A stretch of 64,000 nt of DNA from Escherichia coli. GTDB lineage: Bacteria > Pseudomonadota > Gammaproteobacteria > Enterobacterales > Enterobacteriaceae. Position numbers: made by a program. Of this stretch, positions 49,601 through 55,600 are shown in pieces. Numbering within the stretch: the first letter of the stretch is position 1; each line of letters opens with the position of its first letter. The stretch lies in assembly GCF_044324875.1 (NCBI RefSeq), contig NZ_CP172185.1. The stretch is one strand, 5' to 3'.

Positions 49601-52600
49601 CATAATTCAGTACCTATAGTGAGTAAAATTAGAACAAACATAGCAACGGCTATGTTTTATAGCATAAGCTATACACAATGCAAATGATTATCATTAGTAA
49701 TTCAGACCCCAACACAGGCATTAGGTTGTTTCCTGCTGGCGATGTGGTATTGAGGAAAAGCGTAGGACAGATATCAGGCTTTGAAAGTAAGTGTTAAGTT
49801 AAGCGAACGCCGTATTGACGCTTATTTATTGGTGAGTACTACGTTCCATGGCAGGAGTTCGTCATATAGACGATTATCTCAGTAAACATATTTATCCCTC
49901 CTGATAATTGTCTTTAATGATATGTTTTTATTCTTTTTGAAATAACTCACAAAATGATAATCAGGTCTACACAGAAATGTGATACACATCTTGTTTTTTA
50001 AAGAAGAAAAATGACATTGCTCACATATTTATCTGGGTTTATATAAATAATGTAATTATTGTGAAAAGTAACTATTTGATTTTTAAGTATATATTCGCAA
50101 ATCAAATTAGTTAATATTTCAGAGAAATTAGAAGATCTTCACATTTATAAAATCAGAATGTGATTTTTATCTCGGTTTATTACTTGATGATAAAGTATTA
50201 AAGGTTTTAAATATTATGTTTGTATAGGAGTACAATTTTGGATATCTATTTTGACGACAGTTTGCTATCCCTGAATCAGAATTTTACATCTCCAGAAGAT
50301 GGTATTCGTTATGCAGGTGAATTATTGCAGAAATCAGGAGCCTGTACATCTGATTATATTGAAGAAATGATCCACACATATCACGAATTTGGCCCAGTTA
50401 TTGTTCTGGATAATGGTGTGGCGATGCCTCATGCTCGACCAGAAAAGGGAGGATTAAAAAGTGCTTTCTCTGTGGTAGTAACAGAATTTCCAGTGATATT
50501 TCATCATCAGGAGTTTGATCCGGTGAATGTCATTATTGCCATCTGTGCCATAGACTCAGATACACATATTCATCTTATTCAGATTGTAGCTGATTTAATT
50601 GAAAGAAATATTGCGTCTTATGTGAGAAATAGTAGCAAAGAGCAGGTCTTATATTTTATCCAGAAATCAATAGAGAGGACGTTATGCTTAAAATAAGAAC
50701 TGTATGCGGCAATGGGATTGGTAGTTCATTAATGGCAGCGAATAATGTTAAAAAAATTTGTGAGGAAATGGGCATAAAAGCAGATGTAGCCTCGGTCGAT
50801 TTTGCTAACGCAGTTGGGGAAAATGCTGATCTGTATATCACTGTTAAAGAGTTTGCCTCACAATTTCCATCTCAGTATAGAGTCGCTGTGATCCGTAGTT
50901 ATGTACATAAGGTGAAAATTGAAGAGGATGTTAAAGATACTTTACAGAAACTGAGTCAATTCTGATATTTTACAGGGGGTATATTATGACATCAATTCTT
51001 TTAACTCTTACAGAAATCTTCAGTCAACCAGCCTTCCTTATGGGGATTATTTCTTTGGCTGGATTACTGTCATTACGTTCGCCACTTAATAAATTACTAA
51101 CTGGTACACTGAAACCAATCCTCGGTTATTTAATGTTGAGTGCAGGTGCCGGTGTGATTGTTTCAAATTTAAATCCTCTGGGTGGTATTATCGAAGCTGG
51201 ATTTAATATAAGAGGCGTTATACCTAATAATGAAGCGATCGTATCAGTAGCTCAGAAATTACTTGGTGTGGAAACCATGAGCATTTTATTGCTCGGATTT
51301 ATTTTTAATCTTGTCATTGCACGATTTACTAAATATAAGTACATATTTTTAACAGGACATCATTCATTCTTTTTAGCGTGCTTATTTTCTGCGGTATTAC
51401 AGGCTGCGCATTTTAGTAACGGGGAATTGGTCATTATAGGCGGTTTCCTGCTGGGAGCATGGTCTGCGATTTCTCCAGCAATCGGGCAACGTTATACCAG
51501 ACGAGTGACTGAGGATGGAGGGATTGCCATGGGACACTTTGGCTCCTTGGGTTATTATCTGTCAGCCTGGATTGCAGCGAAAGTTGGTAAAGCAGACACA
51601 TCATTTGCTGATACTGAAATTTCTGAAAAATGGGGCTTCCTGCGTGATACCACAGTGACTACCGGTATTGTAATGGTTGTTATTTATCTGGTATGCAGTA
51701 TTGTTGCTGGTTCCGCATATATCAGTACAATTACCGAGCAGAATCTGGTGACCTTCTCCATCCTGTCCGGTCTACAGTTTGCGGTAGGAGTTGCTATTGT
51801 CTACAGTGGTGTGCGTTTAATCCTAGGCGATCTTGTCCCCGCATTTCAGGGGATTAGCCAGAAACTGATACCGAACTCAATTCCGGCTGTTGACTGTGCG
51901 GTATTCTTCACTTTCAGTCCTACTGCAGTGGTGATTGGCTTTATCTGTTCTTTTTTAGGTGGCCTTGTTGGTATGTTGATACTGGGGGGGGTTGGTATGG
52001 CGCTGATTATCCCTGGCATGGTTCCGCACTTCTTCTGTGGTGGTACCTCTGGTGTATTTGCAGATAAGCTTGGAGGTAAAAAAGGTTGTATTATTGCGTC
52101 GTTTATTGGCGGTATTTTCCTCGCTTTTTTACCCGCAATGTTGTTACCTGCACTGGGAAATCTCGGTTTTGAAAACAGTACCTTTGCAGACTTTGACTTC
52201 GCTGTATGGGGGATTGTTATCGGTGAGGCCTTTACTCACTTCGGACAAATTGCTGTTTATATTATTTGTGCTGTTATGAGCCTGGTATTACTGATCCCGT
52301 TTGCTTTTAAATCCATAAAAGTTGTAGGAAATACAATGAGCTATGAAGAGTTAACGAAAAAAGATTATGCTGACAAGTAAACACAATATTAGTGTAAAGT
52401 ATTAAGGAGTTGTTATGGCTATAATTACTATAGGACTATCCTGTTTTGACCAGTTTTTTTATATAAACAGATGGCCAAAAGAGAATACTAAAAACTTTTC
52501 CTGTGATTTTATTGAAAGTGGTGGCGGCCCCTGTGCCAATGCAGCATGGTTGCTGGGTTTATGGGGCGAGTGTGTGTACTTCTCAGGCCATCTACAAAAC

Positions 52601-55600
52601 GATATCTATGGACAGAAAATTATAGATGAGTTTCATGATGTTGGAGTAAATACAGATTATGTGATTTTCAATAATCAAATGCTTACACCGCTGGCATCTA
52701 TACTAGTGAATCAATTAAATGGTTCAAGAACGATTATAACACGCAAACAGAATTATCCCCCACGAATGACATTTGAAGAAAAGCTGAAAATAGATGAATT
52801 GATTACACATCTGACATATGATGATAAAAAGGAAGTTATTACAATATTAATTGACGGCCATGAACCTGAGTTGAGTGAATATATTATACAGCGAATGCCA
52901 GATGCCCGAGTCGTGATGGACGCAGGCTCTCTTCGGGAGAGTAATTTAAATCTGGCTAAATACACAGACTATCTGGTTGCCAGTGAAAACTTTGCCTGTG
53001 AACTATCTGGAATTGAAAAATTTACATCTGATATACAGTTAAACGAAGCTTTAACAGAACTTAATAAATTGTCCCGAGGTCAGCCCTTTATTACTCTTGG
53101 TGAGAGAGGATGTGCATATCTGAAGAATGGAATACCTACAATATCACCAGCTTTTATTTGTAATGCAATCGATACAACAGGTGCCGGTGATGTTTTTCAT
53201 GGTGCTTTTACGTATGGTGTTCATTACAACTGGCATATTGATAATATTATTTTGTTTGCCAGTCTGGCTGCAGCTATTTCTGTTGAAAAAAAAGGTGTCC
53301 GCGAATCCATACCTGATTTAGCTGATGTCCATAATGCTATAAATCAATATGAAAGAAGTAGAGAAAAATACTTTACTTCATTTTAAGTTATACACAAGCA
53401 AGAGGAAATATGATGTTAGTTTCTATAGAGAATATGCTTAATCGTGCCCTTGTACATCAGTACGCAGTTGGTCAGTTTAATATCAATAACCTGGAGTGGA
53501 CAGGTACTGTGTTAAATGTTGCACAAAAATTACGTTCTCCGGTTATTTTAGGCGTCTCCGGTGGCACTATAAAACATATGCTTGGGCTGAAATGTATTCA
53601 CGATATTGTTGTTAACGCAATGGAATTCCTGGAAATAGATGTGCCGGTGGCTTTACATCTTGATCACGGTCAGTCTTATGAGGCTTGTGAGGCGGCAATT
53701 AAAGCAGGTTTCAGCTCAGTAATGTTTGACGGTTCACATATGCCTTTTGCCGAAAATCTGGCAATAACAAAACGTCTGGTGAAGTATGCCCATCGTCGGG
53801 GAGTATCTGTGGAAGCAGAGCTAGGCACGATTGCAGGAAGTGAAGATGGCATTGTTAATTCCCGAGTGATTTATGCAGATCCTACAGAATGTAAGCAACT
53901 TGTTGAGGAGACAGGAGTGGATTGTCTGGCTGCAGCACTTGGTTCCACACATGGATTATATAAAGGAAAAGCAAAACTCGGTTTTGCGGAAATGGAACAT
54001 ATATCACAGTTGGTAAAAGTACCCCTGGTACTTCATGGGGGCACAGGTATTTCAGATACGGATATGAAAAAAGCTATTTCACTTGGCACAGCAAAAATCA
54101 ATGTTAATACCGAAAATATGTATGCGTGGTGTTTGTCAGTGAAAGAACAGTTTGAACATAAGGGGGAACATGATATTAATGATCCCCGAAAAGTTATTAC
54201 GAAAGGATTGCAGCCAGTTGCAGAACGAGTGGCAGAACGAATGAGCCTGTTCGGCTCTGTTGGACAGTCCCTCTGAACTGTTACAGTTTCCTGCAGGTCG
54301 TCATTCATTCAGGCAATCTGCAGGATTGAACTATATTAGACATCCAGGAATAATTCCCTTCCACAGGGGGCACGGAGGATTGAAATTGCACTGAATGGGG
54401 AATTTGTTAACGTCGCCCTTACCATGGTCAGGATTTCACGCCCTGTTACAAACACTCGTGTCAGTATTTCTTGGCCCTATTCAGTACTCCTCACTACCTG
54501 CCAACGACACCGCTAGGAAAAACGCCCGCGTGTAATAAAATAAATCAGCCATCGCAGGGCGCCGATCATTCGCATGCATCGCTGATGACGCGCCCAAACA
54601 AGCGTCAAGATGAGTTAACCTGAACAATTCGTTATAAGCCCGGTGCCTTCCACAAAGAAGTTGTCAACCCGTGATCGACCAAGCTCAACTGTTCCTGATA
54701 TACAGCCCGCCATTTTTCGAGCAATTCCTGATAAAGCTCATGTTTTCTTTTGTCCGGAACATGCTACCTTTCCCAGCTCACCAGGCATTCTCCCGTTTCG
54801 TCCATAGATGAGTAGATACCTGCCCCTACACCAGCAGCAATCGCACAGCCCAGTGCCGTTGCCTCTTTGACTACAGGAACATTAACTGGTAGCCCTGACA
54901 CATCAGCCAGAATCTGGCTCCAGAGTTCTCCTTTTGCACCACCTCCCGCAAATACCAGAGATGAAGGGTAAGCGTACAGCGAGGGCCGTATTGACGGGGA
55001 TGTGTTATTCAGCTGGCAGTGCTATGCGCCACGGAAGCAGTTCGCTGACCCGGTTGACCGGCCAGTCTGCTATGACGCCAAGCACATGGCGAAGGTAGCT
55101 TTCTGGATCCACGTCATTCAGTTTGCACGTCCCTATCAGGCTGTACAGTAGCGCTCCCCGCTCACCACCATGGCCAGAGCCGAAGAACAGGAAGTTTTTA
55201 CGACCCAGACTTACCGCCCGCAGGGCATTTTCAGCGATGTTGTTGTCGATTTCCACCCAGCCATCGTTCGCATAGTACGTCAGTGCCGGCCACTGGTTAA
55301 GTGCGTACGCGAACGCCTTCGCCAACTCTGAGTGTCGCGACAGGGTCTTCATCTTTTCACGCAACCAGCTTTCCAGGGATTTCAACAGCGGTTTCGTTTT
55401 TCGCTGACGTTCAGCAAGCCGCTGCTCTGCCGGCATTCCCCTTATATCCGCCTCTATGGCGTACAACTGACCGATCTGCTCCAGGGCTTCTTCCGTCAGT
55501 GCTGACGGGATGCGGACGTGCACATCGTGGATCTTTCGGCGGGCATGAGCCCAGCAGGCAGCTTCCGTTATCCCACCATTGCGATACAGCTCGTTGAACC

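Follow-up and report, generated by a model that had tools for sequence, protein, structure and literature searches.

The subject of this analysis is a compact phosphotransferase system (PTS) module in a 64,000-nucleotide stretch of Escherichia coli DNA (NCBI RefSeq assembly GCF_044324875.1, contig NZ_CP172185.1), referred to here as the window. Open reading frame (ORF) calling revealed five intact plus-strand ORFs at 50238-54276, which encode the PTS components EIIA, EIIB, and EIIC, a PfkB-family kinase, and a class II aldolase (Pfam E-values: PTS_EIIA_2, 6e-24; PTS_IIB, 8e-15; EIIC-GAT, 7e-128; PfkB, 3e-31; F_bP_aldolase, 6e-98); they sit between sitA and an IS66-family transposase gene (Table 1). 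A preliminary description of this DNA had placed the same five functions in one co-directional block of much lower GC content than its surroundings, and both observations hold: the module has 38.4% GC, compared with 53.7% in the left flank, 50.1% in the right flank, and 23.6% in the region upstream of it, and the GC content at third codon positions is 27 to 36% in its genes and 48% in sitA. The interval given at that time, 49604-54276, is right in its end and its gene content; however, it opens one base past the start codon of sitA. Its first 634 nucleotides (nt) are therefore noncoding, and its first 261 nt belong to the sit locus.

The EIIA gene most likely starts with the TTG at 50238, which lies 7 nt past an AGGAG sequence and is annotated as the start by RefSeq in identical loci; in Yersinia, an ATG occupies the aligned position. 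The mechanically called ORF opens earlier, at 50220. The EIIA and EIIB genes overlap by 13 nt and the remaining intergenic gaps are 20 to 34 nt, a spacing consistent with a single operon of five genes.

Table 1. Positions in the window of the module genes and of the features that border them
Feature	Position	Strand	Basis
PTS EIIA, 152 aa	50238-50696	+	Pfam PTS_EIIA_2
PTS EIIB, 93 aa	50684-50965	+	Pfam PTS_IIB
PTS EIIC permease, 464 aa, L-ascorbate (EIIC-GAT) family	50986-52380	+	Pfam EIIC-GAT, 428 bits
PfkB/ribokinase-family sugar(-phosphate) kinase, 323 aa, YihV-like	52415-53386	+	Pfam PfkB
Class IIb (Bacillus-type) fructose-bisphosphate-like aldolase, 287 aa	53413 (or 53410)-54276	+	TIGR01859
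AT-rich (~24% GC) promoter/regulatory region	49928-50237	+	CRP-like sites
63 bp unique to the window arrangement	49865-49927		In neither homology block
sitA-upstream region and first ~60 bp of IS66-family end remnant; outside the module	49604-49864		Homology to LH50-c and AR_0085
sitA (Mn/Fe-binding protein), left neighbour, unrelated to the module	48689-49603	-	Pfam ZnuA; RefSeq annotation of homologous regions
Intergenic DNA travelling with the module	54277-54631		Within the 5043-bp block, 99.07% identical to AR_0085
lsrK-like autoinducer-2 kinase gene, 3' remnant with internal stop, cut by IS66-family element	54632-54967	-	Collinear with AR_0085 lsrK
IS66-family insertion sequence (IS) end, transposase 55005-56543; right boundary of the segment	54968-56543	-	Pfam DDE_Tnp_IS66, zf-IS66, LZ_Tnp_IS66

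Transporter and enzymes

The transport proteins retain the phosphorelay residues of the UlaABC family. In EIIA, which is 31% identical to E. coli UlaC, the phosphorylatable histidine lies in VAMPHARPE, whose AMPH aligns with the His68 motif of UlaC; in EIIB, the phosphorylatable Cys8 lies in VCGNGIGSS, aligning with Cys9 in VCGNGQGSS of UlaB. EIIC shares 27.5% identity with E. coli UlaA (E-value of 1e-45 against the UlaA structures in the PDB) and keeps the V-motif hinge glycines G58 and G286 together with R288, all of them elevator or phosphotransfer residues. Comparison with the 11 residues listed as vitamin C contacts of ecUlaA (PMC6048161) showed that four are kept in EIIC (H135, H194, D314, and F362) and seven are replaced (T86N, Y87E, I136H, Q139F, Q195F, I358V, and M410F). 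The replacement pattern was identical in 7/7 EIICs compared from cassettes of this kind, which ranged from E. coli to Cetobacterium. Such an invariant, non-ascorbate pocket is direct evidence, at the level of sequence, that the cassette EIICs share one substrate and that this substrate is not ascorbate.

The aldolase exceeded the cut-off of the class II fructose-bisphosphate aldolase (FBA) equivalog model TIGR01859 (360.8 against 343.05) and is approximately 62% identical, as counted from the printed alignment, to the Bacillus anthracis FBA 3q94 (E-value, 2e-99). Its metal-binding and catalytic motifs HLDHG, GSTHG (of the form G(S)xHG), and LHGGTG align with those of 3q94, 7nc7, and 4to8. The enzyme looks fructose-like rather than tagatose-like, and a preference for fructose-1,6-bisphosphate (FBP) is predicted. 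In Cetobacterium, the aldolase slot of the cassette is occupied by a different protein (319 aa, 31% identical), whose best model, PRK07084, gave 415 bits, below the cut-off of 511. Since two non-orthologous FBA-type aldolases, from independent lineages, fill the same slot, the intermediate that they cleave is most likely D-threo (3S,4R) in configuration, as FBP is.

The best PDB match of the kinase is the sulfofructose 1-kinase YihV (7ag6; E-value of 4e-32, 28% identity), with ribokinases at about 1e-16. The protein scored below every NCBIfam equivalog cut-off, the best being ribokinase TIGR02152 (121.3 bits against 299.65), and it gave 23.9 bits against a cut-off of 216.4 on TIGR03168, the hexose kinase subfamily of 1-phosphofructokinase (1-PFK) and tagatose-6-phosphate kinase; by these scores it is a member of a YihV/ribokinase-like branch and not of the 1-PFK/LacC type. 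The cassette kinases retain the in-trans lysine (K26), the sugar-binding aspartate (D12), and the catalytic DTTGAGD motif. In YihV, the sulfonate at C6 is contacted by K27, N109, and R138; in contrast, the cassette kinases lack the two-residue insertion that bears R138, and the asparagine is not conserved across the family. The loop that forms the C6 pocket in YihV is longer by four residues in the cassette kinases, and the inserted stretch, T-R-K in most of them, has conserved basic positions; from the alignment, the pocket would have been rebuilt for a different, probably anionic, distal group, such as a phosphate.

Occurrence, upstream region and proposed pathway

The order EIIA-EIIB-EIIC-PfkB-aldolase is repeated in Morganella, Yersinia, Orbus, Lonepinella, Vibrio, and Cetobacterium, and the neighboring genes are entirely different in each case. 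The kinase of the window is 83% identical to that of Morganella morganii, 68% to that of Yersinia vastinensis/pekkanenii, 60% to that of Orbus sasakiae, and 58% to that of Utexia; more distant copies are those of the Pasteurellaceae and Psittacicella (~45 to 50%), Vibrio coralliirubri (43%), and Cetobacterium and other Fusobacteriaceae (38 to 40%). EIIC is the most conserved component across the cassettes, with 59 to 91% identity to the window copy, and EIIA is the least conserved, with 31 to 76%. The GC content of the module is close to that of its flanks in Orbus and Lonepinella and clearly below it in E. coli and Yersinia; the Morganella copy, at 47% GC, therefore did not serve as direct donor of the E. 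coli copy, at 38%.

A profile scan of genome contigs with the kinase alignment returned at least 600 stretches; among the matches listed, these were mostly distant PfkB proteins (28 to 45% identity), close carriers were missed, and no census was drawn from the scan. The neighborhoods of distant kinases gave no clue to the substrate: adjacency to pyruvate phosphate dikinase was confined to one Bacilli lineage, sulfatase clusters flank the Prosthecobacter copy, and the conserved neighbors of copies in metagenome-assembled genomes have irrelevant Pfam domains or none.

Distantly related clusters were observed in Terrisporobacter (L042, 437-7408) and a member of the Coriobacteriaceae (L050, 2687-7906), where an Asc-type PTS (EIIA, EIIB, and EIIC), a PfkB kinase, and a class II aldolase are encoded together with two further proteins, a P-loop kinase of the AAA_33 family and a small TPR protein; the regulator is of the PRD/Mga type in Terrisporobacter and of the GntR type in the Coriobacteriaceae. 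These Gram-positive variants look like another PTS pathway variant, and transfer of function from them was rejected, their EIIC being only 39% identical.

The module is rare in E. coli and evidently horizontally acquired. A megablast search found it, at 99.0% identity, in 8 of 5426 complete E. coli genomes (0.15%), and a blastn search with the EIIC gene at word size 11 returned the same eight genomes and no weaker match; it is no core-genome operon of the species. None of the 72,556 plasmids searched carries it, and a plasmid origin is rejected. Isolates from chicken, black kite, and human faeces are among the complete-genome carriers, and the exact kinase protein is present on ~524 contigs in NCBI records. 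The window and the allele of the carrier AR_0085 differ at 24 codons, 21 synonymously and 3 nonsynonymously; therefore, the genes have been under purifying selection while in E. coli. One E. coli assembly (locus L011) has a split EIIC gene; in nearly every copy examined, the whole set of five genes is intact.

Four CRP-like sites (TGTGA-N6-TCACA, with no more than two mismatches) lie in the 310 bp upstream of the operon, at 49936-49951, 50010-50025, 50128-50143, and 50159-50174. Composition-matched Markov simulations gave a mean of 0.26 such sites (P, ~1.5e-4) and of 0.97 TGTGA or TCACA pentamers, of which the region has six (P, ~4e-4). In the alignment, these sites coincide with TGTGA/TCACA motifs that precede the Morganella and Yersinia cassettes and with two perfect CRP palindromes, TGTGATCAAGATCACA and TGTGATCCAGATCACA, that precede the Lonepinella cassette. 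A candidate extended -10 element, TGaTAAAGT, was read by eye at ~50187-50197, and the last CRP-like site, centered at ~50166, would lie ~40 nt upstream of it. A generic sigma-70 scan of the region gave no more matches than in shuffled sequence, and an Rfam scan detected no Rfam element, leader, or riboswitch. No conserved regulator gene accompanies the gammaproteobacterial cassettes examined; in Cetobacterium, a gene for a Mga/PRD/EIIB/EIIA-type activator lies directly upstream. Expression of the gammaproteobacterial cassettes is probably driven by cAMP-CRP, without a dedicated regulator.

A motif of ~20 nt was also seen twice in this region, within 50007-50042 and 50155-50180 (ATATTTATCTGGGTTTAT and ATTTTTATCTCGGTTTAT; 89% identical), right after two CRP-like half-sites. 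It could be a second operator or merely a duplicated CRP-site flank.

We postulate that the module is a self-contained, horizontally acquired catabolic operon for a ketose-type sugar, and we place the probability of this reading at approximately 0.6. From family membership and the conserved residues, phosphoryl groups would pass from the EI and HPr proteins of the host to the EIIA histidine (AMPH) and on to Cys8 of EIIB, and the sugar would be phosphorylated during uptake through EIIC. The YihV-like kinase would then phosphorylate the other primary hydroxyl, and the FBA-type aldolase would split the resulting ketose bisphosphate into dihydroxyacetone phosphate (DHAP) and an aldose phosphate, both of which would enter glycolysis; the aldose phosphate would be glyceraldehyde-3-phosphate if the sugar is a hexose. 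The logic of PTS uptake, a second phosphorylation, and aldol cleavage is that of the preliminary description and is supported by the gene set; we also agree with its decision to leave the substrate unnamed, and we assign none from the sequence. D-Fructose is the simplest candidate, held with considerably less confidence than the pathway itself; sedoheptulose or another fructose-configured ketose of different chain length or substitution is a serious possibility.

Several observations weigh against this proposal. If the intermediate were plain FBP, the PfkA and FbaA of a host would make a cassette-borne kinase and aldolase superfluous, which argues for a substrate other than fructose. The 28% identity to YihV and the failure of all curated equivalogs leave the substrate of the kinase and the position that it phosphorylates no more than putative, and an aspartate, D147, in an invariant LIDGHE motif, occupies the region of the anion-binding arginine of YihV. 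No inducer-specific regulator accompanies the E. coli module, and its upstream DNA is AT-rich and resembles xenogeneically silenced DNA, so that expression in E. coli is conjectural. A second cassette-like locus, in Psittacicella melopsittaci (L024, 4581-7948), has genes for EIIB, EIIC, and the kinase as well as one for a 222-aa protein that matches no Pfam domain; tblastn searches detected neither the aldolase nor EIIA there. Finally, a literature search found no publication on members of the cassette or on the combination of an Asc-type PTS with a PfkB kinase and an aldolase.

L-Ascorbate is, to our knowledge, the only established substrate of the Asc PTS family. It can be suggested, tentatively and with less than even confidence, that the cassettes represent a new substrate class for this family, in which a neutral fructose-configured ketose is handled by ketose-phosphate kinases that are sisters of YihV and by a dedicated FBA-type aldolase, as a portable, regulator-free unit leading from sugar to triose. 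If so, the cassette would bypass the control of host PfkA and FbaA and would move among gut-associated gammaproteobacteria and Fusobacteria. The strictly conserved but altered pocket of EIIC, together with a complete downstream pathway, makes identification of the sugar, possibly a second Asc-family substrate, a tractable task; the same assignment would explain what an entire branch of YihV-like PfkB kinases does.

Among the alternatives, we considered a route of the tagatose/galactitol type, in which a 3S,4S ketohexose phosphate would be converted to tagatose-1,6-bisphosphate and cleaved by a GatY/KbaY-like aldolase; we regard it as unlikely. The pathway logic would be the same, the EIIC-GAT Pfam family spans galactitol and ascorbate permeases, and tagatose-bisphosphate aldolase models still score 250 to 272 bits with the module aldolase. 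However, all of these models fell below their cut-offs (PRK09195, 272 against 384; TIGR01858, 251 against 443; PRK12738, 215 against 542), whereas the FBA equivalog was passed, and among PDB proteins FBA scored 336 bits and AgaY 195. Furthermore, no GatZ/KbaZ-like ORF was found within the module, the substitute aldolase in Cetobacterium is of the FBA type, and the kinase is not of the 1-PFK/LacC type. The phrase "tagatose/galactitol-like" in the preliminary description thus stands for the logic of the pathway but not for its enzymes.

Somewhat less probable again is a monophosphate route, in which the PTS, acting on external sugar, and the kinase, acting on internal sugar, would be alternative sources of one ketose-1-phosphate and the aldolase would yield DHAP and an unphosphorylated aldehyde, as with ketohexokinase and aldolase B or with YdjH and YdjI. 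Free sugars are substrates of many PfkB kinases, ketohexokinases are among the PDB relatives of the kinase, and YdjI is among those of the aldolase; however, the aldolase is far nearer to true bisphosphate aldolases (336 bits) than to YdjI (168 bits), no gene that would handle an unphosphorylated aldehyde product is present in the module, and an anionic substrate is suggested by the basic arginine/lysine insertion in the pocket loop of the kinase.

We give similarly low credence to the view that the module is cryptic cargo in E. coli, with intact genes that are not usefully expressed from silenced AT-rich DNA and that hitchhike in an IS-rich island. The E. coli module has no regulator, whereas Cetobacterium and the Gram-positive variants have a PRD/Mga-type activator; in addition, its upstream region has a GC content of 24%, it is very rare in the species, and one copy has the split EIIC. 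Against this view stand the strong purifying selection, the intactness of nearly every copy, the conservation of the CRP-like sites, and the general lack of a regulator in gammaproteobacterial cassettes.

It is very improbable that the module is a second uptake system for L-ascorbate or a related lactone, or that it is the vpe locus of extraintestinal pathogenic E. coli (ExPEC). The ascorbate reading draws on the name "PTS ascorbate transporter subunit IIC", given to the permease by RefSeq and by the NCBIfam model NF006919 (514 against a cut-off of 380). The curated equivalog scores are mixed, as NF006919 was passed and the UlaC model (74.5 against 187) was missed. However, the second ascorbate IIC model, NF009549 (421 against 890), was also missed, UlaA identity is low, and most ascorbate contacts are replaced; moreover, the module contains no ulaG-, ulaD-, ulaE-, or ulaF-like genes, and the carrier AR_0085 has a separate ula locus (ulaR, ulaG, and ulaA-D). 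An identity as an ascorbate uptake system is therefore largely refuted. The link to an ascorbate-type ExPEC locus that the preliminary description had raised fails on other grounds: NCTC 86 and O104:H4 2009EL-2050, carriers of vpe loci with 99.77% mutual identity (PMC5382810), both belong to the 5426-genome collection, and neither gave a match to the module by megablast or, with the EIIC gene, by blastn at word size 11. This identity is thus excluded indirectly, through the reference carriers and not by a comparison of gene content.

A sulfosugar route, suggested by YihV as the best PDB match and by the automatic JGI name "sulfofructose kinase" for several homologues, is the most remote of all, because the cassette kinases lack R138 and a conserved asparagine, no sulfoquinovose isomerase, sulfolactaldehyde reductase, exporter, or yihS/T/U context lies beside the module, true yihV clusters are separate homologues (~28 to 30% identity), and the PTS would use the only free primary hydroxyl of sulfofructose, making the kinase redundant. 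The automatic names, of an ascorbate transporter and, for some homologues, of a sulfofructose kinase, are thus contradicted by the sequence evidence.

Borders of the segment and island context

In the eight complete genomes, the arrangement is ISEc23, the module, a second lsr-like operon (lsrK, lsrR, and lsrACDBFG), and, further on, sitDCBA, on an island that carries an integrase and adjoins ulaD. The window arrangement differs (sitB'-sitA-module-lsrK remnant-IS66) and is also found in further NCBI E. coli assemblies. The block common to both corresponds to 49928-54967 of the window and is 99.07% identical over 5043 bp. In AR_0085 (locus L001, 19707-29250), a full second lsr-like autoinducer-2 operon follows the module, with an extra epimerase/beta-alpha-barrel gene, and the proteins have their own accessions.

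On the left, the sequence at 49604-49864 is 97% identical to sitA-upstream DNA of E. coli LH50-c and AR_0085; this homology ends inside an IS66-type end remnant that RefSeq labels "transposase domain-containing protein" in homologous regions. The 63 bp between the two homology blocks are probably native module-upstream DNA that was lost through the ISEc23 insertion in the other E. coli arrangement. On the right, a stem-loop at ~54290-54325 lacks a U-run (fold z-score, -0.6), and a terminator scan and folding gave no convincing plus-strand terminator past 54276. The lsrK remnant comprises the last ~110 codons, and its translation (...LVSWER*HVPDK...) reveals the internal stop; the stump is evidently a relic of the island arrangement found in other E. 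coli. Homology to AR_0085 stops at 54967, and the IS66 terminal sequence GTAAGCG... begins at 54968. An IS66-type terminal sequence at 49802-49820 recurs as a direct repeat at 54978-54996, at the start of the right-hand IS66. The ends of the block and these termini indicate that IS66-family elements have moved the 5.1-kb segment about inside a mosaic island rich in IS copies, which in the window also contains an integrase gene (14828-16093), several IS copies, and CP4-57-like genes.

Further observations concern the surroundings of the module. At 48318-49603, an intact sitA is followed by only the first ~50 codons of sitB, with no sitC or sitD; therefore, the Mn/Fe transporter is nonfunctional in the window, and sitA stands alone as an orphan. 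LH50-c shares this truncated sitB'-sitA arrangement. Three copies of a two-ORF element (332 and 548 aa) lie at 705-3123, 29233-31651, and 62892-63890, the last cut by the window end; matches in this part of the window are annotated as istA/istB of the IS21 family. With these copies and several others of the IS66 and IS3 families, the island is a very IS-dense mosaic. Cargo unrelated to the module includes genes for a PhoX-type alkaline phosphatase and a phosphoethanolamine-transferase-like sulfatase-family protein (7458-9437 and 11668-13170), which precede the phage-type integrase gene. Two adjacent ORFs at 43509-46354 encode proteins of 377 and 571 aa, the second with a UvrD-like helicase C-terminal domain and ankyrin repeats, which are unusual among E. 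coli proteins; in LH50-c, the pair is annotated as a single frameshifted UvrD-helicase gene. Just beyond the IS66 copies, at 58307-61250, lies a low-GC (~41%) pair of genes, one on the minus strand for a pepT-like M20 peptidase and one for a substrate-binding protein of the SBP_bac_5 family; an E. coli genome from chicken (CP033635) shares the pair at 98.7% identity.

For E. coli, the module represents a rare, island-borne metabolic trait that may serve as a marker of niche adaptation; no link to virulence was found here.

Comparison with known systems

Among the closest known systems is the L-ascorbate PTS UlaABC of E. coli (SgaTBA; TC 4.A.7), with which the module shares the transporter family, the EIIA/EIIB/EIIC layout, and the phosphohistidine and phosphocysteine. 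However, the ula system includes a lactonase, a decarboxylase, epimerases, and UlaR, whereas the module has a kinase and an aldolase and lacks UlaR. The vpe locus, reportedly an ascorbate-family PTS that is common in ExPEC, is, like the module, an accessory, island-borne PTS EII locus of E. coli; PMC5382810 cites Martinez-Jehanne and colleagues (2012) for it. Unlike vpe, the module is present in only 0.15% of complete genomes, and it has no detectable DNA similarity to the vpe reference genomes.

In its predicted pathway, the module resembles FruBKA, GatABC-GatYZ, the tagatose routes of Klebsiella and Bacillus licheniformis, and LacABCD, in all of which PTS uptake and a second phosphorylation by a PfkB kinase are followed by cleavage of a ketose bisphosphate to triose phosphates. 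It differs from the Fru, Gat, and Lac routes in the families of its proteins: its permease is Asc-type, its kinase belongs to the YihV/ribokinase branch, its aldolase is a Bacillus-type FBA rather than GatY/KbaY or the class I LacD, and it has no GatZ. The sulfo-Embden-Meyerhof-Parnas pathway differs in its aldolase, YihT being class I and the module enzyme class II and FBA-type. Another accessory E. coli operon that combines a PTS with a sugar kinase and class II aldolases is frz of ExPEC, said to have been described by Rouquet and colleagues in 2009; it reportedly comprises a fructose-family PTS, a ROK kinase, two class II ketose-bisphosphate aldolases, a Mga-type activator, and a cupin protein, families that are unlike those of the module.

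In conclusion, the module proteins pass the generic family tests and, of the specific ones, the FBA equivalog only; by sequence criteria they fail those for UlaABC (in pocket residues and linked genes, with mixed equivalog scores), vpe, GatY/KbaY, YihV, 1-PFK/LacC, and ribokinase. The pathway logic is known from other systems; for the combination of an Asc-type, non-ascorbate permease with a YihV-branch kinase and a Bacillus-type FBA, the literature search returned no description.

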